Below, in pieces: positions 8,244 to 53,801 of a stretch of DNA of 54,400 nucleotides. This DNA comes from a virus (lineage: Duplodnaviria > Caudoviricetes): IMG/VR virus record IMGVR_UViG_3300025087_000086, positions 1-54,400 of that record; one strand, given 5' to 3'. The notes below the pieces were generated by a model that was not told where the DNA came from, did not search any database, and saw only the letters and a program-made list of their open reading frames with translations. Both the position numbers and the translations under genes were made by a program. Within the stretch, counting starts at the first letter, position 1; each line of letters starts with the position of its first letter.

Positions 8244-9074
8244 ATGGAAGAAACTATGATGAATAACGAGAGCCAGGAACCAGAGAACAACCAGGAAATG
8301 TCTCTGGAGACAAACCAGGAGAACCAAGGGAATCCAGGGAGCCAAGGGAAACCAGAGAGCCAAGGGAACCAGGGAGCGACTGGCTTCCAAGCTATGGTTG
8401 ACCCCAGTAAGAACCAAGATGTTGACCCAGCTACTCAGAGGAAACTAGAAGACATAAAGGCTATGACCATTAACTTTATGTACAGTGACAAGACTAAGGC
8501 TTCAGTAAAACAGATGGTCTCTGGCAAAGATTACCAGAAGACTGTCCCGATGGCTGCTACTTCGATCTATAAGCAGCTACAAATGTTCCTCAAGAAAGAC
8601 ACTAAGAAGCCTCTTGATTTGGATACTAAGCTGGCTATTGGTCTCACTGCATTCAGTGAAACGATGGAGTTGGCTCAGGCTATGGGAGCGATACCCGCAG
8701 ATGTCTCGGAAGATGAAACTGAGTCAATGCTTCGTAAAGTCATGCAAGATGAGATTCAAGCTGGGCTTAAGAGTGGAGAGATTGACCCAATTGAGTTACA
8801 GAGCAAGATTGAGACTATACTTCCAGATAACATGAAGCAAGAGGGGTCTAAGCTTGTTACTGCCCACGGTGGGTCGGATAGGCCAACTCAGCAGATGGTG
8901 GATCATATGAGAAAACAAAACATAGAGCGTCCACTGAGGACTGAGAATGAAATGCTGAAGGATCAGAACAAGCAGACTAGGACCGCTCTAACTGGGCTCC
9001 AGAACGCAGTACCGATTCAAGGGAAACCTAATATCCCTAGTACTGGTGCAGAAGTCTTCATGGGAGGTAAGTAA
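8244..9074 (+). CDS. Hypothetical virion-module protein
   Basis: 276-aa ORF with QGNQG low-complexity N-terminus, in operon. Confidence 0.6.
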   Translation: MEETMMNNESQEPENNQEMSLETNQENQGNPGSQGKPESQGNQGATGFQAMVDPSKNQDVDPATQRKLEDIKAMTINFMYSDKTKASVKQMVSGKDYQKTVPMAATSIYKQLQMFLKKDTKKPLDLDTKLAIGLTAFSETMELAQAMGAIPADVSEDETESMLRKVMQDEIQAGLKSGEIDPIELQSKIETILPDNMKQEGSKLVTAHGGSDRPTQQMVDHMRKQNIERPLRTENEMLKDQNKQTRTALTGLQNAVPIQGKPNIPSTGAEVFMGGK

Positions 9075-9076
9075 TC

Positions 9077-9994
9077 ATGGGAGCATGGGGTGCAGCGTTG
9101 GCAGGATTCGTAGGTGGAGCAAGTGGAGAGTACGTTAAGCAAGCAGACGAACAGAGAGAGTGGGAGCGGAAGCAGTTACTAATGCAAGCTGAGTTGATGA
9201 AGTCCAAAGAGTTGGCTCAGTACTCTGCTGGCTTACAGAAGATGAACAAAGAATATGTAGATGCAAGCGGGAATCTAGTCCAAGCCACTATGGGTCCAGA
9301 TGGGAGCGTAGCGATACCAGAGGGTGCTACTTCAATGGACATCATGCAGGGACTCCAGAGCATTGAAGCATCTAAAGCTTCCGCTGAAGCGTCTAAGGCA
9401 TCTGCTGCTCAGAATACTGCTGAGACTGCGTTGCTTGGTAAGAAGATGTCTCTCGAAGAGAGGAAGGTAGCTGCTGATGAGCTAAGGGCCAGGACTGATG
9501 CAGCAGGTGGTGGAGTTAAGGTGACTGACTTTGATAAGAAATCTTTGTTAGCTCAGAGAACAATGATTGGCATCCTCCAGAAGCAGAAGACAGATGACCC
9601 AGATGCTATTGACTGGGGTAAAGTATCCACTGCTGATAAGGCTGCATTGAACATGGCTGGAGCATTACCCCCTGATATCAAGATGTCCGATAAGCCAATG
9701 TCTGAGGGGGAGGCCAGGAAAGAGGCTGTAAAGATTGTAGCTGGGATGGAGAAAGAAGACCCAACCCTATTTACTGGAGTACCTGCTGTAAACTCTATAT
9801 GGCCTGGGCAGGATAAACCAGAAATACCAGCTAAGAACAGAGAGGAAATTATAAACTCCCTTACCAGAGAAATCCAAGGGGAGTCAGCACCAAGCTCCCC
9901 CAAGACAGTTTCTGTCCCAGTTGGTACAGTTCGGAATGGCTACAGATTCAAAGGTGGAAACCCTAACGATAAGAATTCTTGGGAAAAGATTTAA
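9077..9994 (+). CDS. Probable ejection (internal virion) protein
   Basis: GAWGAALAGFVGG N-terminus, coiled coil, C-terminal GYRFKGGNPNDKNSWEK motif typical of ejection proteins. Confidence 0.6.
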   Translation: MGAWGAALAGFVGGASGEYVKQADEQREWERKQLLMQAELMKSKELAQYSAGLQKMNKEYVDASGNLVQATMGPDGSVAIPEGATSMDIMQGLQSIEASKASAEASKASAAQNTAETALLGKKMSLEERKVAADELRARTDAAGGGVKVTDFDKKSLLAQRTMIGILQKQKTDDPDAIDWGKVSTADKAALNMAGALPPDIKMSDKPMSEGEARKEAVKIVAGMEKEDPTLFTGVPAVNSIWPGQDKPEIPAKNREEIINSLTREIQGESAPSSPKTVSVPVGTVRNGYRFKGGNPNDKNSWEKI

Positions 9995-9997
9995 TAT

Positions 9998-12900
9998 ATG
10001 AATCCTTGGGAAGAAGATTGGAGTTCAGTTGCCTTAGAGGAACCAGAGGCCCAAGCTACCGCTTTGCCTTGGGAAGAGGACTGGTCTGCTTCGTCTTTGA
10101 TGAATACAGAAGAGGAAGAGAAACTTGAGAAGATTAAAGAACAGCCAGTTACTTATCAACCCCCCGCTGGCATAGAGAGTGCCTTAGCTACTGCTGAAGC
10201 CCCAATAAACAGTGAGGATAAATTTAGCCGTACAGTACTATCAAAAAACGAAGAAACTAAATTTCAACAATGGATTCACTCAACTCCCTGGTATTCTGAA
10301 TATGTGCAGAGGTATGGTGAAGAGCCAGACTTTAACACCCCTGATTATGATTATCGTGGGGCTTGGAAGTCAGGCGTAAAGCCTGAGAGAAGTGAAATAG
10401 ATGGTCAATATCATTGGGGTAGTGTCAGGCCAGATACAGGAGAATATTTAAAATCAGCTAATCATCCAACTTTTTGGAAACAAAAATTCATAGAGAAAAA
10501 TGGATACGATCCTGATAAATCTCCTATTACTCTAGAGACAAAACCCAAACCAGAGAAGAAGTTCTATAGGAAAGACGACCTCGGAGAGTACCAGCGAACA
10601 CAGGACATCGGTTCTCTAGAGTTCATGTGGGATGATATTAAGCAAGCTCCATTTGAAATCGCTAAGAATATCGGTACTATACTTAAGCTTGGGGGTAATG
10701 TCTTTAAATCTGATGAAGGTATAACGTACAGAGAACAGAGAAACAAAGAAAAACCAGGGACATTCACTGCTGCTCAGACTTATGTAGGTGGAGCAATAAC
10801 TGAAAGCATAGACAAAGTAGCATCTATAGCAGAGAAACTTGGGACTACTGCGACTGATTACTACAGGAATAAGTCAGAAGAGATTCAACAAGTTGCTGCT
10901 GTGTATCCCCATATCTGGGAGAACCCAGCTCAGCTAGTTGATCCGAAATATATTGCCAGTACTCTGATCCCAACATTCCGTGATATGGGTGTAGCCTATG
11001 CTGCTGCGTCCTTGACCGGGGGTATTGCTGCTCCTCTGGTTTTCGGTACTGTCATGGGTGCCGAGACAGCATTGCCCAACTACGAAGAGAACATTCGTAA
11101 AGGCATGGACCCAACGCTTGCTGGGCAGACTTTTGCTACTCAGTTCGTAGTGACATCTGTACTTAACTCTTCATTCGTAGCGAAATCCCTAGGACTTGGA
11201 GATGACGCATTTAAAGGAGTAGCCACTAGAAAAGGGGTCTCTGGTAATATTCTCTCTCGCTTAGAGGCTGGAGCCCATGCTGGTCTAAGGGAAATGCCAG
11301 TTGAGTACTTGGATGAGGTAACTCAGAACACTACAAATCTAGTCGCTACAAAGATGGATGAGGGAAAAGACCTCAAGACAGTAGCTCAAGAAACCAGTAA
11401 AGAATTACCAAGTATCTTTCTTAATGCACTTGATGTAATCCCCGCTGCTGGTGTATCCGCTGGTGGTATTGCTACTGCTGCATACAGACCAGGGACCAAA
11501 GATGATCCAGAAACTTCCAAGGAGAACAGGCAGACTGAAGCGGCTATAGACAAAGTATTGGAAGATGCTGGAATCCCAGGGAAACAAGAGAATTCTTACC
11601 AAGATTCAATGAGTCTCTCTGGCTCTCAGGTGTTCGGTATTACCTCAACCTACACTTCCAGTAATGTTCCGTTTGGTCTAGACTTACCAGAGACACCTAA
11701 GCCAGAACCTAAGGCATCTGGAGCAGAAGTCGCCTTCGGCCAAGTTGGGATATCACAAGGAGACCTTAGTGGTGGAGCTGCTGTGTTTACCGAGGGTGGT
11801 GGGCTTCGAGTCTCTAACCAAGGGACTGTACAAGAAGTTGCAGAAAGTGCAACTGTTAGTACACCAGCCGCCCCTGAGACTACACCAGCTACCCAAGTAT
11901 CAGAAGCATCACCAGAGACCCCAGTGGCATCTCCAGTTCCAATTGAGACTCCTGCGGCTACCCCCGTAGCTGTTCCACAGGAAACTGCTCCTAGCCCTCT
12001 TGTAGCCCCTGGAATCCCTACTCCCTCTGAGACGCCCAGTGCTTCAGAGGTCCCTAGTGTTCCAGTGTCTCCAGAGACAACTTCGGTACTCTCCCCCAAA
12101 GCCAAACCTGCTGCATCTCTCTCTGAAGAACAGAGAATAGCCCAGGAAACAGTAGCTAAGGAGTCAGAGATAGCTAAGGCGTTCATAGAAGGCGGCATAG
12201 ACTCTCTGTATGCTACAGTGGATTCACTGTATAAGCAGAGGATCTCTTCGTACAATAAGCTAGATGTAACTGGGAAGTCTCGGGTTAAGAAACCTAGTAA
12301 GCGGGGCATTTATGACGAGTTGATCCAAGAAGCAGAAGCAGAGAGGATTGCTGCTGGGTATAATGAGAACTTCAAAGTAGTGGCTGAAGAGGTTGCTGAA
12401 GAAGTGCTGGGTAACGAGGCTCCCTCTGCTGTAAAAAAAGAGAAACGAGGAAAGCTTGTCTGGTCTACTAAAGAGGACGGGGTAGACACGGCTACTGATG
12501 GTACCAGTAACTACTACATAACCAAGAACACTAAGCCCGATGGAACAAACGAGGAGGGTTACATTCTGTGGAAAGGCAAAGAGAATGTAGGCGTCTTCGG
12601 TTCCAAACGAGCAGCTAAGATGTCGTTGGTTCCAGAGACCAAGTTCGAGATCAAACGAGACACTGGGAAATCTGATTACTTTCGTGTAGTGTCTACGGCT
12701 ACTGGTCAAGCTGTTATGCCTACTGGTTTCAAGAAGAAGTGGATGGCTGAAGAGTTCTTACGGAGACTAGAAGCTGATCCCAAGATGAACAAGTCTCAAG
12801 CAGCTAAAGAGATTAGGGAACTTAAGAATAAACCGAGTACTGGGGCCAAGGTATCTGGGAAAATCCTAGTACCCAAGACAGTTAAGACTGAGCCGGTTCT

Positions 12901-15900
12901 GGATACTGAGAAAGAAGCGAAGGAAGTCGAAGCCAAGAAGCAAGCTGAGATTAGGAAACAAGAAGAGGCTAAGGCGAAGGAAGCTGGTACTAAGATATCT
13001 GAAGAAGAGAAGAAACTCATAGCTGAGCGTCATGCCTACAATACTAAGCGAGCTAAGATTCAGAAAGAAGTAGATGAACAGAAGCGTTCTCCGAAAGACC
13101 TCTTGCCGACTTGGGAAGAGTACCAGAGGAAGCTGAGTAAAGCCCAGCCCAAGCAATTAGAATTAAAAAAGAAAGAACAAGAAGAGAAGAAAGCGAATGC
13201 AGAGAGGGAAGCTAAAGCTAAGGAAAAAAAGGAGGCTCAGGCTGAAGAGAGAGCAAAGGAAGAAGAAGCTGGAGATGCTGAGAAGACTATCACTCCAGAG
13301 CAGACCAAAGAGATCAAAGAAATCCCAGAAGATAAGTTCGAGAAACCCCAGAGAGCTAAGACTAAGAGTAAGATTATCCCAGTCACCAAGGGAATCAGGA
13401 CTCGATCAGTAAAGATTATAGAGACGCTACAAAGTATTCTAGGTCTCTCCGACTGGACTATAGTAGTAGCTGATATCAACCAATTCCGAGATATGCAGAG
13501 TAACAAAGCTGCGTCAGAGGACATAGGATTTAATGAGAACCTAGATAATGATGTGATTCTATTCCTAATCAGTGAAGGGAAAGACTACGCTATAGATAAA
13601 GACCGGAGTACTAACGGTTCTATCTACTCTTTCGTAGAGAACAGGCAGCTAATCCTTTCCATAGATGAGTCCAAGTTCGCTGGTATCAAAGGATCAGTCC
13701 GGGCTATGGGTATCATTGCTCATGAACTGGGCCATGCTGTAGCAAACCGAATCCTAGCTAACATGAATGCAGTAGATCGGAATCAGATTCTTGATAAGAT
13801 GATAGACGACTACTCTGACTACTATGCAAAGACCTTTGAGAGCCACATGAGACTTGGGGAGACTTTGTTAATCTCTCGAAGTGCAGCTAGTAGAGTTCAG
13901 CTAAGAAATCATATTGAAGAGACAATACTGGGGAACACTAGTAAAGATATTCCAATAGATACAATGTCTACTCCAAGTACCAAAGCTTACGTTAGCTACC
14001 TCACCAGCTTCAACGAGTGGTTTGCTGACCAAGTAGCTAAATATGTTGAGCATGATGTAGCAGTAGTGTCTAAGTTCGACCAGTTCATGAAGGGCTTTGC
14101 GGATACAGTACTAAAGGCTATTAGTATCATCAATGAATTTGCTGGATTCGATGTAATCCCAATGTCTAAACCAGCGGAGTCAGTAGCGAATTTTATTAAG
14201 GATATCGGTTCAGTTGCATACGGTTCAGACAAGGGACAGTTTGATAAGAGCTGGAATGAGAATCGAAAGTGGTTACTCAGGCAGCAACTAGACGGAAGAC
14301 AGAGAGCAGTAAAGCTAGCTGCGACTTCTTCGTATGTGAATAGCCTCTCTGACCATAAAGCTTATGTGGATGGGGTATCAGACTATGCGAGGGGCCACAA
14401 GCCAAAGAGCGCCCAAGTACCCGATAAGGACACTGGAGTACCCACGGACCCCTTTTATGATAACGATAATGCTCTTTTAGACGATCAAGGGAATCCCCCG
14501 TTTGTGTTCCATGGTTCACCAGAGATACTGAATGGGGCCATAGATACTTCTATCGGTAACAAGATGAACTACTTAGGCGCTGGATTCAATGTGACATCTT
14601 CAGCCGAAGACGCTTCATTGAATTACAGCGGAAATGGCACTGGGATGCTTTACTCCTACATGGTCAAGATGTCAAAACCATTCTATGTGAACGATAGTGA
14701 CAATGCTATGCCAATGCTGTCCAAAGATATAGAAGCCTTTATTCAAGGGATCAAGAAAGAGTCTAAGAAGTACCCCAAGGAAGTTAGAGAACGATTTAAT
14801 GAAATCGTAGGCACTTTACAAGAATCTGCCGACATAAATGAACCAGTGGACTCCACTGATATCTGGTCAATGTTCCAAGAGAATTTAGGTCAAGACTTTG
14901 GCATTTATGTTAGAGACAACGAGGGAGACAGGACTTCCGCTGGATACATATTGAATAATGTACTCAGGGATATTGGTTATGATGGAATAGTTCTGAACGC
15001 TGGAGCCGAGATGGGCTTCTCCGCTGGAGGGGATTCTATATTTACTGCTACTGGGATGAGTGGGATTACAGAGGACACTGTACACTATCTCATGTTTAAC
15101 AGCAGTGATCTGATAGATATTACCCAAGGAGTGGACTCTGAATCCAGTCTTCCGGGAATTCCAGATAGCTCAAAAGGGTTAGCTAACGAGAACATAGTCA
15201 CTTTCTCTGGATTAGGAGGAAGCATCGAGACTTCTGCTAAAGTGAGTTTCTCTAGTGTCTCCAGAGACAACTCAGCTACTACTAAGATTCCAGGGGAGAC
15301 TAGGTTACAACGTAGGAAACGGGAGCGCCTTGAAGCTGCTGGAGGTAATGCTGGCTTAGTGTCTGCTCAGACTGGACTCATTATGGAAACCGTAGAGGAA
15401 GCTAAGGAGACTTTCGCTCAGTCCAGATCATTCTCAGCTAAGCAAAGACGGATGGCTGAGCGGGTTCTGAACAACTTAAAGGACATAGTAAAGACCAACT
15501 TAGAGTCCGCTGCTGATAGGCTTGAGCAGATATCCCCTTCTCTGATGAGAAAAGTAAATAAGTATGTGATGTATGTGAACACTAAGAATGCAGATCATAA
15601 GAAACGAGTGTCCCCGTTTATCGGATTCGTCTCGAAACAGATGACAGCAGAAGACGCTGACTTGTTTGGCCTTTATCTCAGTAACGGTAAGGAGACTGAC
15701 TGGAAACAAGTTGAGAAGATGTTCGCTAAGTACCCAGGGCTAGAGAAGCACTGGAAAGATACCGAAGCTGTTCTTATGGAAATCCGTAAGGCAGCAGAAG
15801 AAGTGGGCCTTTCCATGGAAAACCTAGTGGACAACTACTTCCCAAGGAAAGTGAATGATGTAGACGGGTTACGAAGGTATCTATACGGAGATGACTCAGT

Positions 15901-20440: not shown

Positions 20441-20679
20441 GACTCGGCAGATTTTACGTCCCTAAATCACTGGTAGATGATCGAAACATCCTCCCCATTC
20501 TGCAAATGCTCGAACTGGTCCCGACCCGCGTACAATCTGCCTACGAGGGCTATATGTATGAGTTCGAGGGCACATCGCCACACTTCCCGGAGATCGGGGA
20601 AGGGGCGAAGGTTCCGCTGTATGAGGTGCTGGAATATAATGGCGAGCTTGTTATCAAACCGAAAGAGGAAGGGCAATGA
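20437..20679 (+). CDS. Hypothetical protein
   Basis: 80 aa, ATGA overlap with the previous gene. Confidence 0.55.
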   Translation: MRLGRFYVPKSLVDDRNILPILQMLELVPTRVQSAYEGYMYEFEGTSPHFPEIGEGAKVPLYEVLEYNGELVIKPKEEGQ

Positions 20680-21015
20680 TCTATTCCCATGTAATCCAAG
20701 AGAGTTCTAAGGTTGTCTCTGGAGACAATACTAGAGCCCAAGGAAATCAAGGGTCACTAAGCTCACTTAGTATACCTAAGTCTCTAGGGTATTATATAAA
20801 ACATGGAAACCATTATGGAACCCTTATATCTACTAAAGATAAGAGTACTATAGAGAAGAGACTAAAGGGATATACTATAGTATATACTAATATATACTCA
20901 GTACAGAAAGAAGATTTAGTCATAGACGACTATGGGAATCCAGAGATAATCTGATTACAAGGAATTCAGTTGATCCCTGAATCCCAAAGATAAACTAAGA
21001 AGAGGAGAACCTAGG

Positions 21016-34503: not shown

Positions 34504-34525
34504 CTCCATTGGCCTCTCTGCTATC

Positions 34526-37096: not shown

Positions 37097-37102
37097 AGTT
37101 GT

Positions 37103-38545: not shown

Positions 38546-38817
38546 ATATCCTCTTGTATTAAGATTATTTCTTCTAGTTCATCGAGTCTCCAATTCCAGA
38601 TGCCATTTCCATGTATCCACTCATTCTCTTGGAAGTTGAAATCTAGATTACTGTAGTAAGTATACATTGGATTTACTACAACACCAGTATTTCTAGTTGT
38701 TTTACATAAGAATCCTGTCTTAGCTATCTTAGCAGATGCGCTAGTAGTTCTATCCTTTGTAACTACGAACACAGTCCCCACTGGGGGGAGCTTAGGCACA
38801 TCAATGGACTTCTGCAT
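38542..38817 (-). CDS. Hypothetical protein
   Basis: GGAGG RBS before ATG 38817. Confidence 0.55.
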   Translation of the reverse strand: MQKSIDVPKLPPVGTVFVVTKDRTTSASAKIAKTGFLCKTTRNTGVVVNPMYTYYSNLDFNFQENEWIHGNGIWNWRLDELEEIILIQEDI

Positions 38818-43260: not shown

Positions 43261-43443
43261 TCACTTCTTCCAGTGACATTTATGGTAGTAGCTATAGTAT
43301 GCCTTAGCTTGTTTTTCAATGAGTGCTGAGCTCTGTTCCCAGACACCTTTTTCTTCTTGGTAATACGGACGATCACAAGAGGGACAGATGAAAGTGATCT
43401 TACTGGAATCCCGGTGATTCATTTGAATCTGCTTAGGTTTCAT
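43261..43443 (-). CDS. Small zinc-finger-like protein
   Basis: CPSC...HKC; AAGGAG RBS. Confidence 0.55.
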   Translation of the reverse strand: MKPKQIQMNHRDSSKITFICPSCDRPYYQEEKGVWEQSSALIEKQAKAYYSYYHKCHWKK

Positions 43444-43452: not shown

Positions 43453-43767
43453 TTAGAACGCAATGATTACAGTGATGAAGAGCAACACAGTAAGCCCAAT
43501 GTTCGCTCTCCAGAGCCACTTGAAATCCTTATGAATCAGGAACAAGTGATGCCCAATCTCTTCACAGACACTAGTAAGCTTCTTATCCAGGCTCTTGTTT
43601 ATCACAAGTTGCCTACGATAAGCAGAGGACATATCTGAGTAGTTCCCTTGAAGTGTATGGTACTTCTTGTTAAGCTCTTCCAGAGCTACATTAGTTGTCT
43701 CCGGAGACAGTGGTTCTGAGTTACCCTGGGATTCCAACGGTTTACTGAATGTCTCTACACGGTTCAT
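43453..43767 (-). CDS. Coiled-coil protein with C-terminal membrane anchor
   Basis: C-terminal IGLTVLLFITVIIAF. Confidence 0.6.
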   Translation of the reverse strand: MNRVETFSKPLESQGNSEPLSPETTNVALEELNKKYHTLQGNYSDMSSAYRRQLVINKSLDKKLTSVCEEIGHHLFLIHKDFKWLWRANIGLTVLLFITVIIAF

Positions 43768-43812: not shown

Positions 43813-44268
43813 TTAGTTACCCTGGTTCCTCTTAGCTTTCTCTATAAGTTGCTCAAGCTGCTCTACAGTACTGAAAAGATTCTCAGTCTCACTAGCAAAG
43901 TACTCCTGAAGAGCTTCGACATGCTTAAGCACATCTTGGAGTGTAGCTGCATCAGCAGTGTCAAACGCTCCAGCTTTAGACATATGTATGAAGTACGAAG
44001 CATGAGTGACCGGGATTCCGTCTTCAGCGAGACAAGCGATAGCGGAGAGGAATGAAGGGTCTTTGCTAAGCTCAGCTATCTTCTGTACCATATGAGCCCG
44101 AGTAGTTCCACCGAAGAGACCTTTGAAGTTCACTACAATCTGATACATATAATGTGCAAAGGCAGCTTCATCAAACCCCTCCACTGACTGGCTGAGCTTC
44201 TTTCCATTAGTATTCACAGTGATTCCTTGGGCGTTTCCATTGTTACCAAACAGATTCATAATTTTCAT
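43813..44268 (-). CDS. Hypothetical protein
   Basis: 151 aa, GGAGGAG RBS. Confidence 0.65.
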   Translation of the reverse strand: MKIMNLFGNNGNAQGITVNTNGKKLSQSVEGFDEAAFAHYMYQIVVNFKGLFGGTTRAHMVQKIAELSKDPSFLSAIACLAEDGIPVTHASYFIHMSKAGAFDTADAATLQDVLKHVEALQEYFASETENLFSTVEQLEQLIEKAKRNQGN

Positions 44269-44477
44269 AAAACTCCTCCAATTTTTATTTTAGTTGCTTC
44301 TATATCCTTAGAAGTTAGTTGCATAAATCTCTCAGTATGTGGCTTAGTTGTTTTCCTGCCTTTTGGGGTTTGGCAATAGTAACCTTTCTCTGCTTTGCAT
44401 CGTGGGCAATCGTAAAACATAATAGCTCTACAAAATCCCCACTTCTACCAGCCTTCGTTTGGAGTGTAAGGTTTCAA
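44265..44477 (-). pseudogene. Zinc-finger ORF with in-frame TAG at codon 11 (or a 51-aa gene from ATG 44420)
   Basis: GGAGGAG then TTG; MKPYTPNEGW*KWGFCRAIMFYDCPRCKAEKGYYCQTPKG...PHTER. Confidence 0.45.
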
Positions 44478-44496
44478 AGCTCTCTCCTCCGATTAC

Positions 44497-44804: not shown

Positions 44805-46448
44805 TTACCTTTTCTCCACTTCATTATCCAACCCAGACACCTTATACATTTCCATTACTGCCATCCTCTCGTTATCATCAGCAATCTTGTTGATGAATGC
44901 CAGATTAACAGCAGTGAGCATGGGGAGTTTCATCTTGGATACCATATCCAGTATAGCAATGAGACCCCTTGGAGACATAGTGAGAGCCAGTTCCCCGGAC
45001 TTATAGGCGTTCCTAATAAGCCCAGCAAACTTCACCAGCTTACGGATTACTGGTTTCCTGGTTCCCTTGAATTTCTGCTTCAGCATCTCTACTTCATCGT
45101 CTTCTTTCAAGTAGTTGAGATGAGCGTTGATACTGATCCGATCAAGCATACTCGTATCTTGAATCTGAGTAGCTGCGAACTTTTCCATAGAATCCCCAGT
45201 TCCCTTGACGTTATCAGTGAGGAACATTTGAAACTCAGGAGCAGGACGAATGATCTTATCAGCAGAGGTTCCAGGCATGTCATCTATTGTAAGGTACCCA
45301 TTTTTCTCATACAGATGCTGCATAGCCATAGCAATATGAGGGGGAATCTTGAATACTTCATCAATCGTAATCATGAAACCACCCATGAGCCCTTGGGGGA
45401 GGAGACCATACTTGAACTCCATCCCACCCTCAGATGCCCAAGGGAAGCCTAGGAACGAGGAACTCTCAAGATCACCTCTACCTCCAAGTCTCATATAAGG
45501 CTGCCTAAGATGAGCTGCAAACTGCTCTACAGCAGTGGTCTTCCCTGTCCCCGGAGGGCCAGTAATCAGCATCTTCTCTCCCAAAAGAAGGGCCACTACC
45601 ATACCTTCGAGTACCTCTGTATCCCAGAGGTAATCAGGATTAATAGCTGGAATATGCTGTCTCACTGCTTCGGGGAAGTGAGTTTCAGCATACACTGGGA
45701 CATCGTAGTCCAGCCCAGAGAGCGGGAGCTTTCCCCCCGTAATTGTGGAGAGCTTGATTACAGTCTTGGGAGCCGGAGCAGACACCTTGGCAACTCGTTT
45801 CTTAGGCGTCTTAGTTTCTGTCTCCAGAGACACTTCAGAGACCACTGGAATCTCTGGAACCAGAGTAGCAGTATTCTCTTTCTCTTTGGCTTCTCCAGAT
45901 ACCTCAATAATGAACTTGCACTTAGCAGTCAACTGAGAAGCAATGAGATTCACATGCTCCTTTGCTGCATCTTCGTCCACTTCTGCATCACTCATGTAAT
46001 CAGACACCACATCACTGAGAATATCTCGTCCAGGAGTGTGGAATTTCTCATTAGTGTCTACGCATTTCTTCAGCTCTTCCATGACAGCCCACTGAGCAGA
46101 GTTCAGAGTGATCGTCTCAGATATCACTGGAACCGTTGGAGTACCAGTAGACTCTACAGTTTTACACTTATCAAAAGGGATAAGCACCTTTTTCTCAGTT
46201 CCGTCTGTTCTACACAGATACGAGCCAGAGCTCTTTCCAACTACCTCAAAGTTGGCTCCAGTCTTGAAGCCGAAGTAATTAGTGGTCAATACTACTCTCA
46301 TAAGTTTTCCTCCGTTACCTAATGATTCCTCTGATTCTTTGGTGAACCCGTTGTTACCAAAGGCTAATTCCCTTGAATTGGTTTCCCAGTTTGCTGGGTC
46401 AAAAGCAGCATTTGGACTCATTGGATTTCTATAAACCGTGGTACTCAT
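44805..46448 (-). CDS. CobS/CbbQ/NorQ-like (MoxR clade) AAA+ ATPase
   Basis: GPPGTGKTT, TIDE, TDNVKG, SMLDR, MSPRGL. Confidence 0.88.
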   Translation of the reverse strand: MSTTVYRNPMSPNAAFDPANWETNSRELAFGNNGFTKESEESLGNGGKLMRVVLTTNYFGFKTGANFEVVGKSSGSYLCRTDGTEKKVLIPFDKCKTVESTGTPTVPVISETITLNSAQWAVMEELKKCVDTNEKFHTPGRDILSDVVSDYMSDAEVDEDAAKEHVNLIASQLTAKCKFIIEVSGEAKEKENTATLVPEIPVVSEVSLETETKTPKKRVAKVSAPAPKTVIKLSTITGGKLPLSGLDYDVPVYAETHFPEAVRQHIPAINPDYLWDTEVLEGMVVALLLGEKMLITGPPGTGKTTAVEQFAAHLRQPYMRLGGRGDLESSSFLGFPWASEGGMEFKYGLLPQGLMGGFMITIDEVFKIPPHIAMAMQHLYEKNGYLTIDDMPGTSADKIIRPAPEFQMFLTDNVKGTGDSMEKFAATQIQDTSMLDRISINAHLNYLKEDDEVEMLKQKFKGTRKPVIRKLVKFAGLIRNAYKSGELALTMSPRGLIAILDMVSKMKLPMLTAVNLAFINKIADDNERMAVMEMYKVSGLDNEVEKR

Positions 46449-48355
46449 ACCAAGAACTCCTTTAGTACGTTGAACAGCACCATATCCAAGTCTTCTGGGT
46501 CATTCACTACACAGTGGTGCTTGTAATATCGCTTCACAACGTCCGTGGTAACTCCGATACCGACTAGATCAATGGGAGTCTTTGTTTCGATATCGCTACA
46601 GACTTTCTTTAAATACCTGTCAGCATTACCACCATTCGCTCCACAGGGAGAACCATCAGAAAGGACAATAAGTAGTTTCCGATCCTCTTTGCGGTTCAGT
46701 AGCCGCTCTGCTGCATAGAGTATGGAATCTCCATCGCAGTTATAGTGCATATTAACCTGTTGAGATGACATGATATCTGCCATGGTCTCCTTTGATACTC
46801 GTTTTCCATAGGGTTTAAAAACGTAGGTGATAAGCCTACCCCTGCTAGAGAACCCAAGTATCTCGTGCTCAATTTGAAGAGCAGTGAGGGCTTCATTTAA
46901 CGCTACTACACAAGCAGATCCAATAGCGTACTTAGAGCCACTCATGGAACCAGAGCAATCCAGCAAGAGCTCTACTGCTGAGTTCTTATTGAGTCTTGAT
47001 CCATCTTTCTTCTTGAATATCCTCGGAGTTGCCCCTGGAATCTTGTTACCCGAATAGACCCTATGAACATTCTTTGAATGAATCTTCCCCTGAGTCTGCC
47101 CGTAGCTGTACGTTGAAACTGACATGGTTTGGAGATACTTAGCCACTTGTTTGGATACTGTGGAGTGACCAATAGCAGAGACAATAGCTTCCTTCTGGCC
47201 CTCATCAACTCTCTTCTCAGAGATATCAATTACATCATGCTTCGGATAAGGGATATACGGTCTGTCCCCCCCATGCTTCTCTACCTGAGTCTCTTCCATA
47301 GGAGCTGTCATTTTAGCAGCTATGGCTTTCTTGATCTTCTCCAACTGAGAAGCGGTAATCTGTTTGTCTTTCATTTCCCACTTAGCATCAATCAGTTTCT
47401 CGTTACCTTCGGCATTAGTGGGTTGTCCCCCATGCTCACCTTGGTTATGGTCAAAAGCAGAGTCTGGGGTACTGTCACACTTCTCGGAACCAGAGCCGTC
47501 TTTGTTTTGCTGCCCCTGACCTTCTCCTTGGCCCTCCTGAGGCTCTCCTTGGCCCTTTCCTTGCTTCCCTTCGCCTTCCTTGGGCTCTCCCTTGCCTTTA
47601 CCCTGATTCTCTCCTTGGCCCTTTTCCTGGCCCTGTGGAGGAGGGGGTTCATAACCAATGAGTTTAAGTAAATCAAGCACAATGCCAGCCTGTATCTCCG
47701 ACTCTTGGCCTGGGCTCTCTAGAACTGAGTCCATCCTTGTCTCCAGAGACAGCTTATCAAACGCTTCGTAGAAGTCCTTATGGATACCACGGTACTGGGT
47801 CATATCCAGAGCTTCCATTGGGTGTCCCATCCATTTTTGTCTACACTCAGCGGTATAGGCGAAGAGTGACAGGAACAGCTCATCAATGGGATCAGTAGAC
47901 GCAGTGAGCAAGGGATCAACATAAACACCCTTGCTCTTCTTCGTAAGGTCTAACTCAGCTTTTCCAGTGTGCATCAAGAACCTGCCGATACTGAATAACT
48001 GGTCTATTCTGTCGAACTTACCGAACATTGCTTTCTCACAGTACACATCCATGAGTAGGTTATTAATAAGACACACTAGCTTATCCTCGAAATTGAGATG
48101 CTTAATTAACTCAAAATAAGACCAGTGCATTTTCTCCATAACATGGGAGAGCTCATGAAAACTGAGAAACCAAAAGAACTCTTCATCGTAGCCAGAGGGA
48201 GGCGGCAAAGTAATCTCACAGTGCCTTCTCTTACTCATCGTCGCTTTTGGTTGGTTACAGTATGGCTCCCATCTTACGGAGATATTCCCACTAGTTGCCA
48301 GAGAAACCAAGAATTTCTTCTGGGCTTCACTGGTTAGTCCTATAGGAATTGCCAT
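46445..48355 (-). CDS. CobT-like vWA protein with N-terminal HExxH
   Basis: FHELSH; Gly/Gln/Glu linker; MIDAS LLDCSGSM...IVLSDGSP...GIG. Confidence 0.85.
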   Translation of the reverse strand: MAIPIGLTSEAQKKFLVSLATSGNISVRWEPYCNQPKATMSKRRHCEITLPPPSGYDEEFFWFLSFHELSHVMEKMHWSYFELIKHLNFEDKLVCLINNLLMDVYCEKAMFGKFDRIDQLFSIGRFLMHTGKAELDLTKKSKGVYVDPLLTASTDPIDELFLSLFAYTAECRQKWMGHPMEALDMTQYRGIHKDFYEAFDKLSLETRMDSVLESPGQESEIQAGIVLDLLKLIGYEPPPPQGQEKGQGENQGKGKGEPKEGEGKQGKGQGEPQEGQGEGQGQQNKDGSGSEKCDSTPDSAFDHNQGEHGGQPTNAEGNEKLIDAKWEMKDKQITASQLEKIKKAIAAKMTAPMEETQVEKHGGDRPYIPYPKHDVIDISEKRVDEGQKEAIVSAIGHSTVSKQVAKYLQTMSVSTYSYGQTQGKIHSKNVHRVYSGNKIPGATPRIFKKKDGSRLNKNSAVELLLDCSGSMSGSKYAIGSACVVALNEALTALQIEHEILGFSSRGRLITYVFKPYGKRVSKETMADIMSSQQVNMHYNCDGDSILYAAERLLNRKEDRKLLIVLSDGSPCGANGGNADRYLKKVCSDIETKTPIDLVGIGVTTDVVKRYYKHHCVVNDPEDLDMVLFNVLKEFLV

Positions 48356-48366: not shown

Positions 48367-48606
48367 CTATCTAGGGGTTAACGTGTAGAACCCATCGAAT
48401 ACCATCTTGATACCTGGGAACAAGGATAAGTCCTCAGCAACTAGATCACGAATCTGTTCACAGAATAACACTGGAACAAACCCAAATCTGTCTCTGGAGA
48501 CAAATATCCAATACCCAAGACGCTTGGACACTACACAACGCTCTGTTACCTCAGTTAGTATAGTGGCTGACAAGCCACAGTATCTAGTCACAAGATGTTC
48601 ATACAT
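48367..48606 (-). CDS. Hypothetical protein
   Basis: 79 aa, AGGAGG RBS. Confidence 0.55.
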   Translation of the reverse strand: MYEHLVTRYCGLSATILTEVTERCVVSKRLGYWIFVSRDRFGFVPVLFCEQIRDLVAEDLSLFPGIKMVFDGFYTLTPR

Positions 48607-49135
48607 AGTACCTCCTGCTTTCTTAGGAATCTTGGGCCACTTTGACCACTACAATGAGTACCAGATACTTTGGTAAGAACCAGTTTTCACTGATACTCAT
48701 TAAAGTTTTCAAAGTAAACTAAATACCTCTGCTACAAGACGGCTATCTCTAGTACCTGAAAGACTGGAAAAGTTACTTGTCTTGAGCTTCATGGGAACGA
48801 AGAGATACCTAAGAAATCTAGGTAGAGCACTTGTTTAACCGAACACTACTCGCGTTCACTTGTTGCAGCTTTGTCTCTAGAGATAACTCGTTGTCTCGTT
48901 ATAGAGACACCTTAGTTTTCCTTGTAACTCTTGCACAGTGCCAGTTCACTACGCCGTTACCGTAGTAACTACGCTGTTACGACTAAGTAACGAACCCTTT
49001 ACTCTCAAGCCTGTCGTTGATCTAATCAACTCCTCCAGTAAAGGGGAAATCTAGTATACTACTGAATAATAAATAGACTTTAAAGTAGTCCAACTACGGT
49101 GGCTTAGGTTCTAGTTTCATAGAATACTCCGAGTT

Positions 49136-49809: not shown

Positions 49810-49992
49810 TTAGTGGCTCTCTAGCTCCTTCACAATACGCTGGAACAGGGTTTCAGCTTGCCTTATCGAGCGAATATCATACCGCTCTTTGGTAAGCTGC
49901 CCATACTTCCAGCCAAGCACCTTGTAAGTATTAAATCTTGTCTCCAGAGACAGCTCGACTCGGACCTTAGTGCTCTTATGGGTCTTGTGCAT
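49810..49992 (-). CDS. Hypothetical early protein
   Basis: 60 aa, RBS present. Confidence 0.55.
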   Translation of the reverse strand: MHKTHKSTKVRVELSLETRFNTYKVLGWKYGQLTKERYDIRSIRQAETLFQRIVKELESH

Positions 49993-50191
49993 CTGGTTTA
50001 CCCTCTCTTAGCATGTCATTAATGGTGAACCAGAATTTCTCCATTTCATCGTAAGACACATTGAACTCTTTATTAAAATTGTCCTCAAATGTCTCCTTAG
50101 TCACACAGCCAGCAGTCTCATGCAGTACCTTTAGTTCTCTGTCAGTTAATAGCCACAAAGTCTTTCCTGAACCCTCATTTACCCTTTCCAT
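49976..50191 (-). CDS. Hypothetical early protein
   Basis: GGAGG RBS before ATG 50191. Confidence 0.55.
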   Translation of the reverse strand: MERVNEGSGKTLWLLTDRELKVLHETAGCVTKETFEDNFNKEFNVSYDEMEKFWFTINDMLREGKPDAQDP

Positions 50192-50336
50192 AGTCGCCTC
50201 CGTAAACCAGAGAACCCAGGCCAGCAAATGGCATATGAAATCCGTGGCTTATGTACACCTTAGCTCTTTTGCCATAGGTTCTCTTGATCCTCCGAATTGT
50301 CTCTGGAGAGACTTTACCTATTACTTTAGCTTTCAT
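50175..50336 (-). CDS. 53-aa basic early protein (not in ORF track)
   Basis: AGGAG RBS; MKAKVIGKVSPETIRRIKRTYGKR... Confidence 0.5.
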   Translation of the reverse strand: MKAKVIGKVSPETIRRIKRTYGKRAKVYISHGFHMPFAGLGSLVYGGDYGKGK

Positions 50337-50489
50337 GGCTATCTCCTGATACTTGGGTTAGTAACGAGTATCACTTAGCTACACTAGTGAGTGCCTGAAT
50401 CCCCCTAGACATTCACTGGCATTTACAACCTTCAGTTTAGCTGGGATTTTTGTCTCTATTTCGAGACATCGAAATGTCTCTAGAGACGA

Positions 50490-51167
50490 TTAAAACGGCA
50501 CTTCCTCGGATACCGTAGGCACTCCAACCTCTACGTTGGTCTTATGCTCGCCCACTGCCATGTAAGTAGCCATGAGAGAAGTAACCAGCGCCTCAAGTTC
50601 AACTACGTTGCTAATGCTGGCGTAGTTGTCCTCTATAATCTTCAGACCACGCTTGACAGCTTGCTCAGGAGTCTCTTGGTTTTTCAGCATAGCGTCCAAC
50701 TCGGACTTGCTCCTGATTTTGCCATTGGGGAACACTTCGTCCACTCCAGCAACAAAGATTGCTCCGAATATTGTGGACAGGTACTTCCACTGATTTGCAG
50801 TGTACGGCAGGGAGCGGAACTTGATGCCATTCTTATCCCGAGTCTTCCAAGGTTTTCCATCCTTATCCACTACTTCCGGGATTTCAGCGTCCAGCGCCTG
50901 TTGCAAGTAGGAGTTCACAGGCGTCTTCGCCATCTCTATCCAGTCCTTCTTGTCCAGAGTTCCATCGTTTTCAAGGGCGACTAGCTCCTGTTCCCACAGC
51001 ATCCTTCCTGTAGCGTTCCATGCCTGTTCAGTCGCCTCTGTACTCCTAAGAAGGGCTTTGGACTGTTTTACGCATACAGTAAGCCAGTCGATTCCATTGA
51101 AGCCAGTCTTTTTCGGTGCTACGGTTCCAGTTGAAGCCGGGATTATTGTTCCAGTTGTTTCAGCCAT
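50490..51167 (-). CDS. Hypothetical early protein
   Basis: GGAGG RBS before MAETTG; 225 aa ending EEVPF. Confidence 0.7.
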   Translation of the reverse strand: MAETTGTIIPASTGTVAPKKTGFNGIDWLTVCVKQSKALLRSTEATEQAWNATGRMLWEQELVALENDGTLDKKDWIEMAKTPVNSYLQQALDAEIPEVVDKDGKPWKTRDKNGIKFRSLPYTANQWKYLSTIFGAIFVAGVDEVFPNGKIRSKSELDAMLKNQETPEQAVKRGLKIIEDNYASISNVVELEALVTSLMATYMAVGEHKTNVEVGVPTVSEEVPF

Positions 51168-51228
51168 GATATCCTCCGTTTTCTCTTGTGTTCTATTTGT
51201 CCCCAGAGACAACCTCTAGAGCCACAGT

Positions 51229-51534
51229 TTACTTCGTAACCTCGGGAGTCCAGTTAGCCACGTTATTGTGGATGCGCTTGAAGTTCAGTTTACGGACGAA
51301 CTTTACTATGTTTCCATCTGCATCTTCCTTGGTATCCCAATACACGGATACATCATGTTTAGCCGCTATGAACTTGCGAGTCTTCGCAGTACGCTCCACA
51401 GTGCCCATACGGATAGGGTGAGATGTGCACTTGTCTTTCCTACGTTTCCCAGGATTCGGCATAACGCCAGTGTCAAATGACCCGTGATTCCCTACACCTT
51501 TGGGAACGTCATAGTATGCGTAGTGCTTCTTCAT
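51229..51534 (-). CDS. Hypothetical basic early protein
   Basis: GGAGG RBS before MKKHYAY. Confidence 0.6.
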   Translation of the reverse strand: MKKHYAYYDVPKGVGNHGSFDTGVMPNPGKRRKDKCTSHPIRMGTVERTAKTRKFIAAKHDVSVYWDTKEDADGNIVKFVRKLNFKRIHNNVANWTPEVTK

Positions 51535-51544
51535 AGTGCCTCCA

Positions 51545-51667
51545 TTATCTGTGGATATAACGATAAAGTCTATCGCTGATAATCCTGTCCATTCGCTGCA
51601 AGTCATATGCATAGTACCACATACCTGGGGTCACATAGGCCCACAATTTGAAGTCATTAATGCTCAT
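51545..51667 (-). CDS. 40-aa first early ORF (not in ORF track)
   Basis: GGAGG RBS; MSINDFKLWAYVTPGMWYYAYDLQRMDRIISDRLYRYIHR. Confidence 0.5.
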   Translation of the reverse strand: MSINDFKLWAYVTPGMWYYAYDLQRMDRIISDRLYRYIHR

Positions 51668-51702
51668 GGTTTCCTCCATTATCGCTGGTTTTCACTGGTA
51701 TT

Positions 51703-51799: not shown

Positions 51800-52080
51800 A
51801 CTTGATCCGTGGACTTTCACAGATTGCCACACAAGGGCATTCAGCGTCTAGGTCAGTCGGTGAAGGTGTCACCACTCAGTTCAACCGAGGGCTGCGAAGT
51901 CTCAAGTGGAGCGCACTTGATTCCCTGTTCGTCTGCCTTGTCGTATCCGTTTGACTCCCTTCGCTTGAGCCGTTCTCCCAGGCTTTCACTGGGCAACTCG
52001 TCATTCGGACACCCTGTTTCCAGCCAGAAATCGGGAATCGTTGGCAGCCAAAGTGTCTCTGGAGACAACTCCTTTGGAGT
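51800..52080 (-). ncRNA. Highly structured early-leader RNA
   Basis: At least nine nested or adjacent helices whose non-Watson-Crick positions resolve as G-U on the - strand. Confidence 0.55.
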
Positions 52081-52116
52081 TCAAGCGTATACGTAGGCAA
52101 GCATAATGCTACACAT

Positions 52117-52318
52117 GTGTTGCACACACCAAATGAGCGTTGCACCATGTGTTGCATGGTACTACATATAGCGTGTGTCTTATCTTATGAATGCCACACA
52201 AGTGTTGCATAAGCGTACGCAATCATAAGACTAATACGCATAAGCGTTGCATAAGCGAACAGAGTGTTGCAGCTTGGGTGTCTTCCCCTGTAATTCCGAG
52301 CACTTAGCATGTGTTGCA
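52117..52318 (+). repeat. Seven GYGTTGCA direct repeats
   Basis: Copies at 52117, 52137, 52149, 52202, 52244, 52264 and 52311. Confidence 0.8.
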
Positions 52319-52658
52319 CCCGGTGGGGTCTTGCGCGTAACGGGGAGGGGCATGCGTCGCGGGGAAAGTAGACCCCCCGAGTCACCGGGGAGATGGTCAC
52401 ACTCTCCCCCAGATTCCTAAAAATATTCTATACTTACCCTTACCCAAGACTCTCCGATGAATTAGTAAAATATCGTATCACTTTAGCAAAACGACTTACA
52501 TAGAATACATAAGTATATACTATAGAACTGGTTACTAGATAAAGATACCTATAGGGATTCTTATATTAAGAGTATAAAAAGCCTACCTAGGGAAACTATA
52601 TAAATAAGAGTACTAAAGGAAACTAGGTAAACTAAGTAAAAAAGAGACAAAGAGTACA

Positions 52659-53801
52659 ATGAAATCCAAAGAAGATACAACTGAAAATCTAGTAAACATC
52701 TCTGAGAAACTGGGTAATACATTATGCTCCCCTAATGTCATCCAGGGTGAGCTAGAGAACTCCCTAGATGAACCAGTAAACACCTTTGAGTCTAAGGAAC
52801 AAAAAGAAATAGATGGGCTTAGTAAACCTCTGTCTCTCAAGAATAGAAATAAAACAAAGAAGCCTAAGAAAACTAAGCAAGGCCATTTGGTTACTAGGAA
52901 GAGAACAATAGACGAATCTAAGCTCACCCCAGAGAAACAATGGGAAATAGCTAAAGAATACACAGATGGTATTCTTAATGTTTCTCAGTTAGCAGAGAAA
53001 TATAATACATCCCCAGAAAACATTGGACTCATTGCTTCTCGATGTTGGAAGAATTTTACTAACATGAGAGAGACCAGAGCCCTAATGTCATTTGGCTCAG
53101 CCAGTTCTCAGTACTCCCTTAAAGTATTACATAACACTAACCTCATCAACCAACAGTTTTTAGATTTACTTTCAGTTTCTGGGACTGAGATCACTCTAAC
53201 CGATGCGGAGTCCATCTACGCTTGGATATATGTCCATACCGGAGAGAACCAGATGGCGTTGGAACAAGCTGGTTTGAACGCTGGTTTACTGCATTCTAAG
53301 AGTGATCCAAATAAAGCCCAGCCCAACTACGAGAAAGCCTGTTCATTGCGTGGGATGTACCTTAGGTCGCTTCCCAATGTCGCGTCTTATATCAAAGAAC
53401 TCAGAGAAAGACGGTTCATTGACCAGGATATCAGTAAAGCCAGGGTACAGTCTGAGCTCTTAGATCAGCTCAGTCAGCTAAAGGAAAGTGGAGACCCGAG
53501 GAATAAAACCCATATTCTGAAAACCATAGAGTTGTTAGGTAAGACAATCGGAGCGTTTATTGAACGAGTCGAAGTAACTGAGATTGATCCAAACAAAGCA
53601 TTGGACAACCTCATCGACATGGCGAAGACTGGAGCGGTGAGGGAGCTGCATAGGAACCAAGCTAAGTTGCCAGAGAAGACCAAGGAATCTGCTGATAGGT
53701 TTGTTTCTCACTGTGGAGATAAAAAGAAATCAGTCACTACTTATGTGTCTCCAGAGACAAATGAAGAATACCGAATAGAAGAGTGGGAAATTCAGGAGTA
53801 A
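52659..53801 (+). CDS. terS: Probable terminase small subunit with HTH
   Basis: HTH LNVSQLAEKYNTSPENI; PNVASYIKELR...KTIELLGKTIGAFIERVEV; directly upstream of terL. Confidence 0.75.
   Translation: MKSKEDTTENLVNISEKLGNTLCSPNVIQGELENSLDEPVNTFESKEQKEIDGLSKPLSLKNRNKTKKPKKTKQGHLVTRKRTIDESKLTPEKQWEIAKEYTDGILNVSQLAEKYNTSPENIGLIASRCWKNFTNMRETRALMSFGSASSQYSLKVLHNTNLINQQFLDLLSVSGTEITLTDAESIYAWIYVHTGENQMALEQAGLNAGLLHSKSDPNKAQPNYEKACSLRGMYLRSLPNVASYIKELRERRFIDQDISKARVQSELLDQLSQLKESGDPRNKTHILKTIELLGKTIGAFIERVEVTEIDPNKALDNLIDMAKTGAVRELHRNQAKLPEKTKESADRFVSHCGDKKKSVTTYVSPETNEEYRIEEWEIQE

Follow-up and report, generated by a model that had tools for sequence, protein, structure and literature searches.

A perfect 14-bp palindrome kept by selection throughout the genome of an uncultured, lytic-type phage: a possible genome-wide operator set

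Why does a phage keep one and the same 14-bp palindrome at some 26 places in its genome, most of them inside genes? The question is posed by a 54.4-kb linear IMG/VR virus record, IMGVR_UViG_3300025087_000086, which was analysed over its whole length and is called the window here. The palindrome, TGTCTCYRGAGACA, is present in 17 exact copies, counted identically on the forward and the reverse strand, and in 26 copies when one mismatch is allowed. The motif is real and under strong selection, and its function is one that we infer: we regard it as very probably a protein-binding dyad, and tentatively as part of a genome-wide system of transcription control.

The counts and coordinates put forward in an original prediction from the sequence (17 exact copies, nine with one mismatch) were reproduced exactly. 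Exact copies have the centre TG in eight cases, CA in eight and CG in one, so that the predicted 8:8 split of 16 of the 17 was also recovered. Dinucleotide-preserving shuffles (n=100) gave a mean of 0.00 exact copies (largest 0) and 0.06 copies with up to one mismatch (largest 1). Synonymous-codon shuffles within genes (n=200), which keep both the protein and the codon usage, gave on average 0.145 exact (maximum 2) and 1.3 near-exact copies (maximum 5), against 17 and 21 observed in the coding set, which was drawn from our own gene calls with two gene starts corrected. The motif is thus enriched over the codon-preserving control that the original prediction had named as a check. Its claim that most copies are intragenic holds as well: 20 of the 26 sites lie in open reading frames (ORFs) conserved in a related contig, G003, and the six others (34488, 37079, 48872, 50475, 51198 and 52054) either fall between genes or belong to a doubtful ORF. 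Four IMG/VR contigs, assembled independently, carry the motif, and its sites fall within stretches covered by Logan contigs at least 99% identical to the window. These contigs come from four runs, each of a different study; three of the runs are labelled groundwater and the fourth soil, and the source sample may be among them. Even with three mismatches allowed, the Nextera mosaic-end 19-mer finds no counterpart in the window. The library or assembly artefact that the prediction had listed among its possible refutations is thus refuted.

Selection acts on the DNA rather than on the peptide. Within genes the motif is read as [MLV]S[LP]ET at 13 sites and as VS[GR]D at eight, and the third frame (CL[WQ]R; Cys-Leu-Trp/Gln) is used at none. 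Peptides of the proteome that are compatible with the motif use its exact codons in 17 of 18 cases, the eighteenth being a one-mismatch site; by peptide, the motif codons are carried by 10 of 11 [MLV]S[LP]ET and by 7 of 7 xVS[GR]D[IMTNKSR]. Furthermore, the comparison with G003, which overall diverges from the window by 13.9% (about 86% identical), shows that the arms of the palindrome are held back from change. At the 12 alignable sites that are exact in the window, 4 of 144 arm positions had changed compared with 207 of 1378 in the flanks within 60 bp (Fisher P=5.8e-6), and the centres of the same sites had changed at 6 of 24 positions. For third codon positions at the 11 sites in called ORFs the figures were 2 of 44 in the arms and 151 of 593 in the flanks (P=7.6e-4), both arm changes belonging to a single lost site. 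The reduced synonymous variation that the original prediction expected of relatives is therefore seen, and with it the nucleic-acid-level selection that it had proposed. The copy in the DNA polymerase gene lies in a loop whose length and sequence differ between homologues about 31-34% identical, which argues that sites are placed where the protein tolerates them.

Four close relatives carry the motif, with 16 (G001), 8 (G002), 22 (G003) and 4 (G006) sites at up to one mismatch. Eighteen of the 19 window sites alignable to G003 are kept in place, and four copies with one mismatch in the window are exact there. In the gene with a weak match to the terminase small subunit (TerS-like gene) the site has moved by 44 bp between the window and G003/G006; turnover there keeps a site in the neighbourhood rather than at the exact base. 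The DNA polymerase has relatives in three close IMG/VR contigs with the motif and in six distant ones (25-31% identity). No site was found in two distant polymerase relatives, G004 and G005, in three contigs found via a 2537-aa protein of the window (G007-G009), or in 80 metagenome loci (827 kb; polymerases 28-32% identical), which also held no comparable dispersed inverted repeat. Among the 80 matches listed for the exact 14-mer in IMG/VR, more than one copy occurred in the known relatives only. Megablast of window positions 1-25000 against GenBank phages gave no match. Neither ORF 48367-48606 nor the primase-helicase, used as queries, brought up prophages or relatives of intermediate distance, and their best matches in GTDB were 22-33% identical; the homologues P0002, P0003 and P0010 are 67-73% identical. 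A repeated 16-mer in G005 was considered as a comparable motif and rejected as a local 12-bp tandem array, with about 14 tandem copies of the 12-bp unit at G005:C1:5669-5840 in a 74-kb record with terminal repeats.

What is constrained is the complete dyad. Solitary half-sites occur at background level (19 TGTCTC and 21 GAGACA against 13.5-20 expected from Markov backgrounds), as do two-mismatch copies (2 against 1.1 expected by chance), and other half-site spacings are absent save for two TGTCTC-N6-GAGACA repeats in the early region described below. Each of the nine one-mismatch copies departs at one arm position, the outermost base in five of them, with no compensating change opposite. The centre is a pyrimidine-purine (YR) step at all 26 sites. 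Between the window and G003 it exchanges TG and CA at 25523, 45819 and 50298 and goes to TA at 49939, 51198 and 52054; with them the encoded amino acid changes, and the arms do not. Since transitions connect all four YR states, drift of the centre within YR appears to be free. On the sense strand the 17 exact sites have TG nine times, CA seven times and CG once. The flanks show a weak symmetric preference, Y before and R after the site (Y at -1 in 42 of 52 half-sites) and A at -3, and no asymmetric promoter-like signal was found in the flanks of the 26 sites. The best RNA fold is a 5-bp stem with a 4-nt loop (-3.7 kcal/mol). The signature is that of a double-stranded DNA dyad of 12-14 bp whose central step is deformable; a promoter, a hairpin, a signal on single strands or an enzyme reading half-sites would leave another pattern. 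Given the dyad-only constraint, the YR centre, the symmetric flanks and the weak hairpin, the reader would be a symmetric protein dimer or tetramer, in agreement with the dimeric binder that the original prediction expected, and the free YR centre fits indirect readout of a flexible pyrimidine-purine step by such a binder.

The window carries structural and lysis genes on the + strand from 1 to 23.6 kb, including the 2537-aa ORF. From 23.7 to 51.6 kb the genes are on the - strand and include an RNA-ligase-like gene, ribonucleotide reductase, a family A DNA polymerase, a gp4-type primase-helicase, a MoxR/CobS-like and CobT/vWA-like pair, a 5'-3' exonuclease, a phosphoesterase, a sigma factor, an Acb2-like protein, a ferredoxin, a ClpX-type zinc finger and four tRNAs. 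The + strand is used again from 51.8 kb, with the weak TerS match followed by the start of TerL. G003 joins the window end to the window start via about 7.9 kb (TerL, portal and capsid-type ORFs), so the genome should be about 62 kb, of which the window omits that stretch. The sites and related features are as follows; N2 denotes the ordinary site with its two-base centre, and the sign in brackets gives the strand of the gene.

8299-8312: exact, centre TG; in ORF 8244-9074 (+), 55 nt past its start, read as MSLET; identical in G006
10527-10540: two-mismatch relic TTACTCTAGAGACA; right edge of a 324-bp in-frame insert, 10205-10529, in the 2537-aa ORF
12066-12079: exact, centre CA; in the 2537-aa ORF 9998-17611 (+), read as VSPET
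15256-15269: exact, centre CA; same 2537-aa ORF 9998-17611 (+), read as VSRD
17527-17540: exact, centre TG; same 2537-aa ORF (+), 71 nt ahead of its stop, read as VSGD
20714-20727: exact, centre TG; in ORF 20676-20954 (+), 38 nt past its start, read as VSGD
25523-25536: exact, centre TG (CA in G003); in the RNA-ligase-like gene 24677-25792 (-)
26515-26528: exact; in the ribonucleotide reductase gene 26117-28051 (-)
28719-28732: one mismatch, TGTCTCTAGAGACG; in ORF 28590-28877 (-); same variant in G003
29113-29126: one mismatch; in the zinc-ribbon ORF 29056-29319 (-); exact in G003
31618-31631: exact; in ORF 31547-31786 (-)
34412-34507: intergenic element of about 96 bp, bounded by the 11-bp inverted repeats TCTGTCTCTAG and CTAGAGACAGA, each half a motif plus centre
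34488-34501: one mismatch, CGTCTCTAGAGACA; intergenic, adjoining tRNA-Leu, right end of the 96-bp element 34412-34507; counterpart in G003
36305-36318: one mismatch; in the 5'-3' exonuclease gene 35841-36983 (-); same variant in G001-G003
37079-37092: one mismatch; intergenic (36984-37102); exact in G001-G003
40352-40365: exact; in the DNA polymerase gene 38801-40720 (-), in the loop that varies among distant homologues
42783-42796: exact; in the primase-helicase gene 41334-42998 (-)
43696-43709: exact, the sole CG centre (CG in G001-G003 too); in ORF 43453-43767 (-), 58 nt past its start
45819-45832: exact, centre CA (TG in relatives); in the MoxR/CobS-like AAA+ gene 44805-46448 (-)
47738-47751: exact; in the CobT/vWA-like gene 46445-48355 (-)
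48489-48502: exact; in ORF 48367-48606 (-), with 96% protein identity to G003
48872-48885: one mismatch; intergenic, first part of composite array B
48892-48909: TGTCTC-N6-GAGACA inverted repeat of array B, 6 nt from the 48872 site; G003 has one exact N2 site after a 24-bp difference
49939-49952: exact, centre CA (TA in G003); in the 60-aa basic ORF 49810-49992 (-), 40 nt past its start
50298-50311: one mismatch; in the 53-aa ORF 50175-50336 (-), 24 nt past its ATG; exact in G003 with the centre flipped
50451-50468: TGTCTC-N6-GAGACA inverted repeat of array A
50475-50488: one mismatch; intergenic, array A, 6 nt from the N6 repeat; G003 homology resumes 3 bp away
51198-51211: one mismatch; about 31 nt upstream of the ATG (51167) of a 225-aa early ORF; exact in G003, centre TA
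52054-52067: exact; in a doubtful ORF, probably non-coding, between divergent gene blocks; one-mismatch TA variant in G003
53702-53715: two-mismatch relic TGTCTGTGGAGATA; exact in G003 and G006; turnover, 44 bp from the 53746 site
53746-53759: exact; in the TerS-like gene 52659-53801 (+), near its 3' end; lost in G003 (three mismatches)

Two of these features are variable segments in their own right. The 324-bp insert is a 108-aa in-frame module that is absent from G006, where an exact site stands at the junction. The 96-bp element has conserved ends and a variable middle, with one copy in the window and two in G003 (L014 10852-10945; L015 8050-8140), the second of which fits and would explain an apparent 16-kb joint in Logan contigs. 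Its right end adjoins the tRNA-Leu of a four-tRNA cluster at 33821-34612 (Ile-TAT, Thr-TGT, Asn-GTT and Leu-TAG; Rfam gave tRNAs only). Thr-TGT and Leu-TAG would read ACA and CTA/CTG, codons that the motif imposes in one frame, and coincidence may explain this.

The sites are unevenly dense along the window, with none in 1-8298, 0.33/kb in 8.3-23.7 kb and 0.53/kb in 23.7-48.4 kb. The density is highest in 48.4-52.1 kb (seven sites in 3.7 kb, 1.87/kb), in line with the late-genome peak of the original prediction. This stretch lies just inside the divergent switch of gene direction and holds small genes without known relatives (ORFans), the set being 85 aa longer in G003. Because it adjoins the divergent switch and contains small ORFans, we read it as probably an early control region. 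Scans of two regions for sigma-70-type promoters and for terminators stayed at shuffle level, so this reading is one from gene order alone. Two mirrored intergenic arrays stand in the early region, each an N2 site, 6 nt and then TGTCTC-N6-GAGACA; they evolve fast, and at least one N2 site is always kept in G003. Furthermore, five ORFs, two of which are small early ones, have a copy 24-58 nt in from their 5' end.

Based on the early-region cluster, the composite intergenic arrays and the copies inside these 5' ends, the account that we favour, still tentatively, is a genome-wide set of operators or roadblocks for transcription control. The cluster and the arrays point at least as much to this role, which is absent from the original prediction, as to the positioning, compaction, protection, entry or packaging that it offered. 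A two-fold symmetric protein, dimeric or tetrameric, would recognise the motif on double-stranded DNA, and purifying selection on the DNA itself keeps it at about 26 places in the genome of about 62 kb. The part of primary operators would fall to the composite arrays and the closely set sites of the early region, beside the divergent gene blocks, and the evenly spaced intragenic copies, serving as roadblocks or loading points, would let the protein reach across the replication and structural genes as well. The binder would probably be one of the conserved ORFans of the phage; that it is phage-encoded we infer.

Several observations weigh against transcription control. Twenty of the 26 sites are intragenic, and three lie deep in the 7.6-kb ORF, far from any likely promoter. 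The 19 sites of 8.3-48.5 kb, an interval chosen post hoc, are spaced more regularly than random points (coefficient of variation 0.53, P=0.002), which fits organising or tagging at least equally well. The promoter scans count on the same side. No conserved DNA-binding regulator was identified by Pfam and/or PHROGs among 66 of the approximately 84 window ORFs (61 scanned with Pfam and five with PHROGs only; the 18 or so left are mostly structural, lysis or doubtful), a scope that applies to all statements on protein families below. There is no integrase or repressor among them either, so that a lysogeny-type immunity is unlikely. AlphaFold models of two candidate binders were too poor to use (48367-48606, predicted local distance difference test score (pLDDT) 45; 35118-35486, pLDDT 61).

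The same scan gave no ParB, no Noc-, SlmA- or MatP-like protein, no Cro/CI-type repressor, and no methyltransferase, integrase or recombinase. Regulator-type matches were limited to a sigma factor, a zinc-finger ORF and the weak TerS match. The sigma factor (37934-38545, a phage-encoded member of the sigma-70 family with a region 4 match and a weak region 2 match) was rejected as the binder, as such factors read asymmetric promoters. The PF24623 zinc-finger ORF 44265-44420 was rejected because G003 lacks it and yet keeps the motif; it sits on a 211-bp segment, 44273-44485, that is missing in G001-G003 and in some Logan contigs. TerS, which the original prediction had named as a candidate, is a poor one, since a separate GYGTTGCA repeat array just upstream of its gene fits a pac site better. 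That array, seven same-strand copies (five of them GTGTTGCA) in about 200 bp at 52117-52320, is absent from G003 at that place and may be a pac or an origin array.

Searches for the binder by PDB sequence and two homologue searches returned close relatives or nothing, and two language-model atlas searches gave best scores of 0.88 and 0.79, within reach of shuffled proteins. A deep HMMER search with ORF 35118-35486 gave four matches, none informative, and Foldseek on the models of 48367-48606 and 35118-35486 found nothing at E<=0.001. Eight ORFans are candidates by conservation and position only: 35118-35486, 43261-43443, 48367-48606, 49810-49992, 50175-50336, 51545-51679, 50490-51167 and 29056-29319. 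On inspection of their sequences 49810-49992 and 50175-50336 give the impression of ribbon-helix-helix proteins, and 35118-35486, with low confidence, that of a zinc module with a long helix; we do not count these impressions as results.

The binder may instead be a host factor. Five arbitrary GTDB genomes had no copy of the motif, and in a sample of one bacterial phylum 12 of 401 genomes had one copy and none had more. Short palindromes are treated by the phage in the opposite way. The 6-bp palindromes CAGCTG (0 against 20.4 expected), TGATCA (1 against 23.3) and CTGCAG (0 against 12.1) are strongly avoided in the window, and ten more are depleted beyond these three, among them AACGTT (0 against 8.5), AGATCT (0 against 7.9) and GGGCCC (0 against 7.0); the avoidance is the same in G003. 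Unmodified DNA under restriction pressure usually shows such avoidance, which suggests a host that may be rich in type II restriction systems. That 26 copies of a 14-bp palindrome are kept despite it underlines that the motif is wanted. The motif as a restriction-modification target was rejected, there being no methyltransferase match and the motif being enriched instead of avoided.

Known operator sets give transcription control its closest parallels. The P1 C1 operators and the conserved inverted repeats of phiC31 are repressor sites present in many copies genome-wide, mostly at promoters, in temperate phages; unlike the dyad found here the P1 C1 operator is asymmetric, and P1 and phiC31 have known repressors. 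MetJ met-boxes and LacI-family operators have half-site centres about 8 bp apart around a central pyrimidine-purine step and are read through deformability. Our motif is like them in dyad architecture only, and no scanned ORF matches MetJ/ribbon-helix-helix or LacI families. RK2 has twelve OB sites. As with its KorB/OB and KorA/OA systems, a short palindrome is spread over a mobile genome of about 60 kb, with promoter-proximal and distal copies and global control. OB sites are described in sections of PMC11790492 as lying 4-10 bp or 45 to >1,000 bp from their target promoters, with KorB acting over up to 1.5 kb, and OA is printed there as a 14-bp palindrome of the form TGT...ACA. The phage motif differs in sequence from the strings printed in those sections, and most of its sites are inside genes; furthermore, KorB is a ParB-family CTPase clamp and no ParB-family protein was found in the phage. 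The stoperators of L5 and other cluster A mycobacteriophages are likewise one site in many copies across a phage genome, with >20 copies acting on initiation and elongation, as excerpts of PMC9283540 state. Stoperators are 13-mers without symmetry to which a monomer binds; they follow the direction of transcription and are placed in promoters and short intergenic spaces of temperate phages. The site described here is a perfect 6+6 dyad with no orientation bias, mostly within ORFs, in a phage in which no repressor or integrase was found.

An alternative, possible but doubtful, is a genome-organising or self-identifying tag, by which a symmetric protein marks, compacts, bridges, positions or packages the phage DNA or distinguishes it from host DNA. 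The intragenic placement and the regular spacing over 40 kb favour it, as does a turnover that preserves the neighbourhood and not the exact base; in the TerS-like gene a site has been maintained across three lineages. The chromosome-organising sites parS/ParB, NBS/Noc, SBS/SlmA, matS/MatP and ram/RacA, which the original prediction had cited, are dispersed, often intragenic 12-16-bp palindromes read by dimers. They occur once per tens to hundreds of kb, whereas the phage motif occurs once per 2 kb, and homologues of ParB, Noc, SlmA, MatP or RacA-type binders were not detected. With the parS and NBS consensus sequences the motif shares the palindromic layout alone. Closer in density are the uptake sequences of Haemophilus and Neisseria (uptake signal sequences, USS; DNA uptake sequences, DUS), a self tag present about once per 1-2 kb in tolerated coding frames and protein regions. 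The phage motif resembles them in its 26 sites per 54.4 kb, coding sequence included, in its use of two of three frames and in the copy in a variable polymerase loop. USS and DUS are asymmetric, chromosomal and read by an uptake machinery, whereas the phage motif is a dyad, and we know of no uptake-type process for a phage.

Against such a tag stand the lack of any ParB/ParA, SMC or nucleoid-protein family among the scanned ORFs, about 16 kb of structural genes with a single site (window 1-8298 plus the 7.9 kb or so known from G003 only), and the post hoc choice of the region in the spacing test. Packaging or compaction also gives no obvious need for a fivefold denser early cluster with composite arrays. 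A particular form of it, which we consider rather unlikely, would be a self-tag system in a lytic-type phage in which an ORFan symmetric binder silences, shields or selects the phage chromosome as a whole; it might, for instance, block translocating enzymes of host defence or degradation, or limit packaging to tagged DNA.

It is improbable that the motif serves a phage or host nuclease, nickase or site-specific recombinase that cuts the central YR step, yielding interruptions, recombination hot spots or module exchange. A YR centre within perfect inverted arms does resemble crossover and cleavage sites, and several breaks fall at or near copies: the 324-bp indel at 10204/10530 with the G006 site at its junction, the 24 bp by which array B differs, the break lying 3 bp from 50475, and the 96-bp element, which is duplicated and has half motifs at its ends. 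However, no significant excess of breakpoints near sites was seen: of 54, four fell no more than 20 bp away where 1.4 were expected (P=0.07), and at 50 bp P was 0.20. No nuclease or recombinase was detected beyond a FEN-type exonuclease. The nick sites of tf, T5 and phiKMV-like phages are, like the motif, a short consensus in 4-14 or more copies largely within genes, tf having 14 asymmetric sites on a single strand, as reported in portions of PMC3517423. The nick sites covered there are asymmetric and confined to one strand, whereas a perfect dyad would be cut on both. The assembled contigs of the 12 sequencing runs list no ends of molecules at all, a feature that contigs are unable to display.

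An RNA-level element, either a small hairpin or a nuclease or ribosome signal in transcripts, is very improbable. The palindrome is transcribed wherever it lies in genes, and a calculation by hand puts nine of the 20 ORF-borne sites within the first 25% of the ORF that holds them. The hairpin is weak, the arm sequence is conserved beyond mere pairing, all nine one-mismatch copies break the pairing without compensation, the sense-strand centre is TG nine times and CA seven, and at least five copies are intergenic. Chance, shared ancestry alone and a library or assembly artefact are already refuted: the motif-bearing contigs are all close relatives (75-94% nucleotide identity) and therefore offer no independent origins, but both kinds of shuffle, arms five times better conserved than flanks within the same alignments, and in-frame sites in independent assemblies with no adapter remnant argue against them.

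Dispersed operator sets and organising dyads are kinds of element already known. The motif departs from them in four ways, being a perfect dyad, mostly intragenic, in a lytic-type phage and with no known binder family present. No description of the motif strings or of a comparable intragenic phage palindrome was found in the main texts of the open-access literature, consistent with the non-recognition of the motif in the original prediction.

Other features of the genome may be recorded here. A clear homologue of Acb2/Tad1-hairpin proteins, of the type directed against CBASS (cyclic oligonucleotide-based antiphage signalling system), is encoded at 24464-24673 (E=9.5e-19), and by PDB sequence the early ORF 51229-51612 is faintly similar to Tad2 (E=1.1). 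ART-PolyVal (ADP-ribosyltransferase of polyvalent proteins) is matched weakly, below the cutoff, by the 2537-aa ORF. At 53809-54399 the start of TerL passes, as judged by eye, into a sequence like an intein N-terminus directly after Walker A, where the contig ends; this stretch has no Pfam match. Residues 1-72 alone align with G003, in which TerL is an uninterrupted 478-aa ORF. G003 carries in its early region a DUF4326 gene and a 149-aa ORF that are absent or replaced in the window (L015 7541-7789, 6063-6512), and in or beside its ribonucleotide reductase gene three extra segments absent from the window (L014 973-2099, 3048-3788, 4506-5977), one of them a clean 740-bp insertion at window 27075/27076 that may be an intein, an intron or a homing-endonuclease gene.

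Collectively our data make an unusually clear computational case for an interaction of protein with DNA along the whole genome of this uncultured phage, the early proteins of which are without known relatives. The selection on the DNA is strong enough to dictate amino acids in the polymerase, the primase-helicase, ribonucleotide reductase and structural genes, and it settles each synonymous choice. It raises the question of why a phage that purges short palindromes, presumably driven by restriction, retains 26 long ones. One 14-mer provides a precise bait, and the conserved ORFans a short list, for seeking a new DNA-binding family. If the self-tag idea were true, this would be a new protein family, a viral counterpart of ParB/KorB or of uptake sequences in plasmids and cells. 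Should the role be organisation, self-marking or long-range silencing without a ParB-type clamp, a principle of plasmids and chromosomes would extend to viruses.

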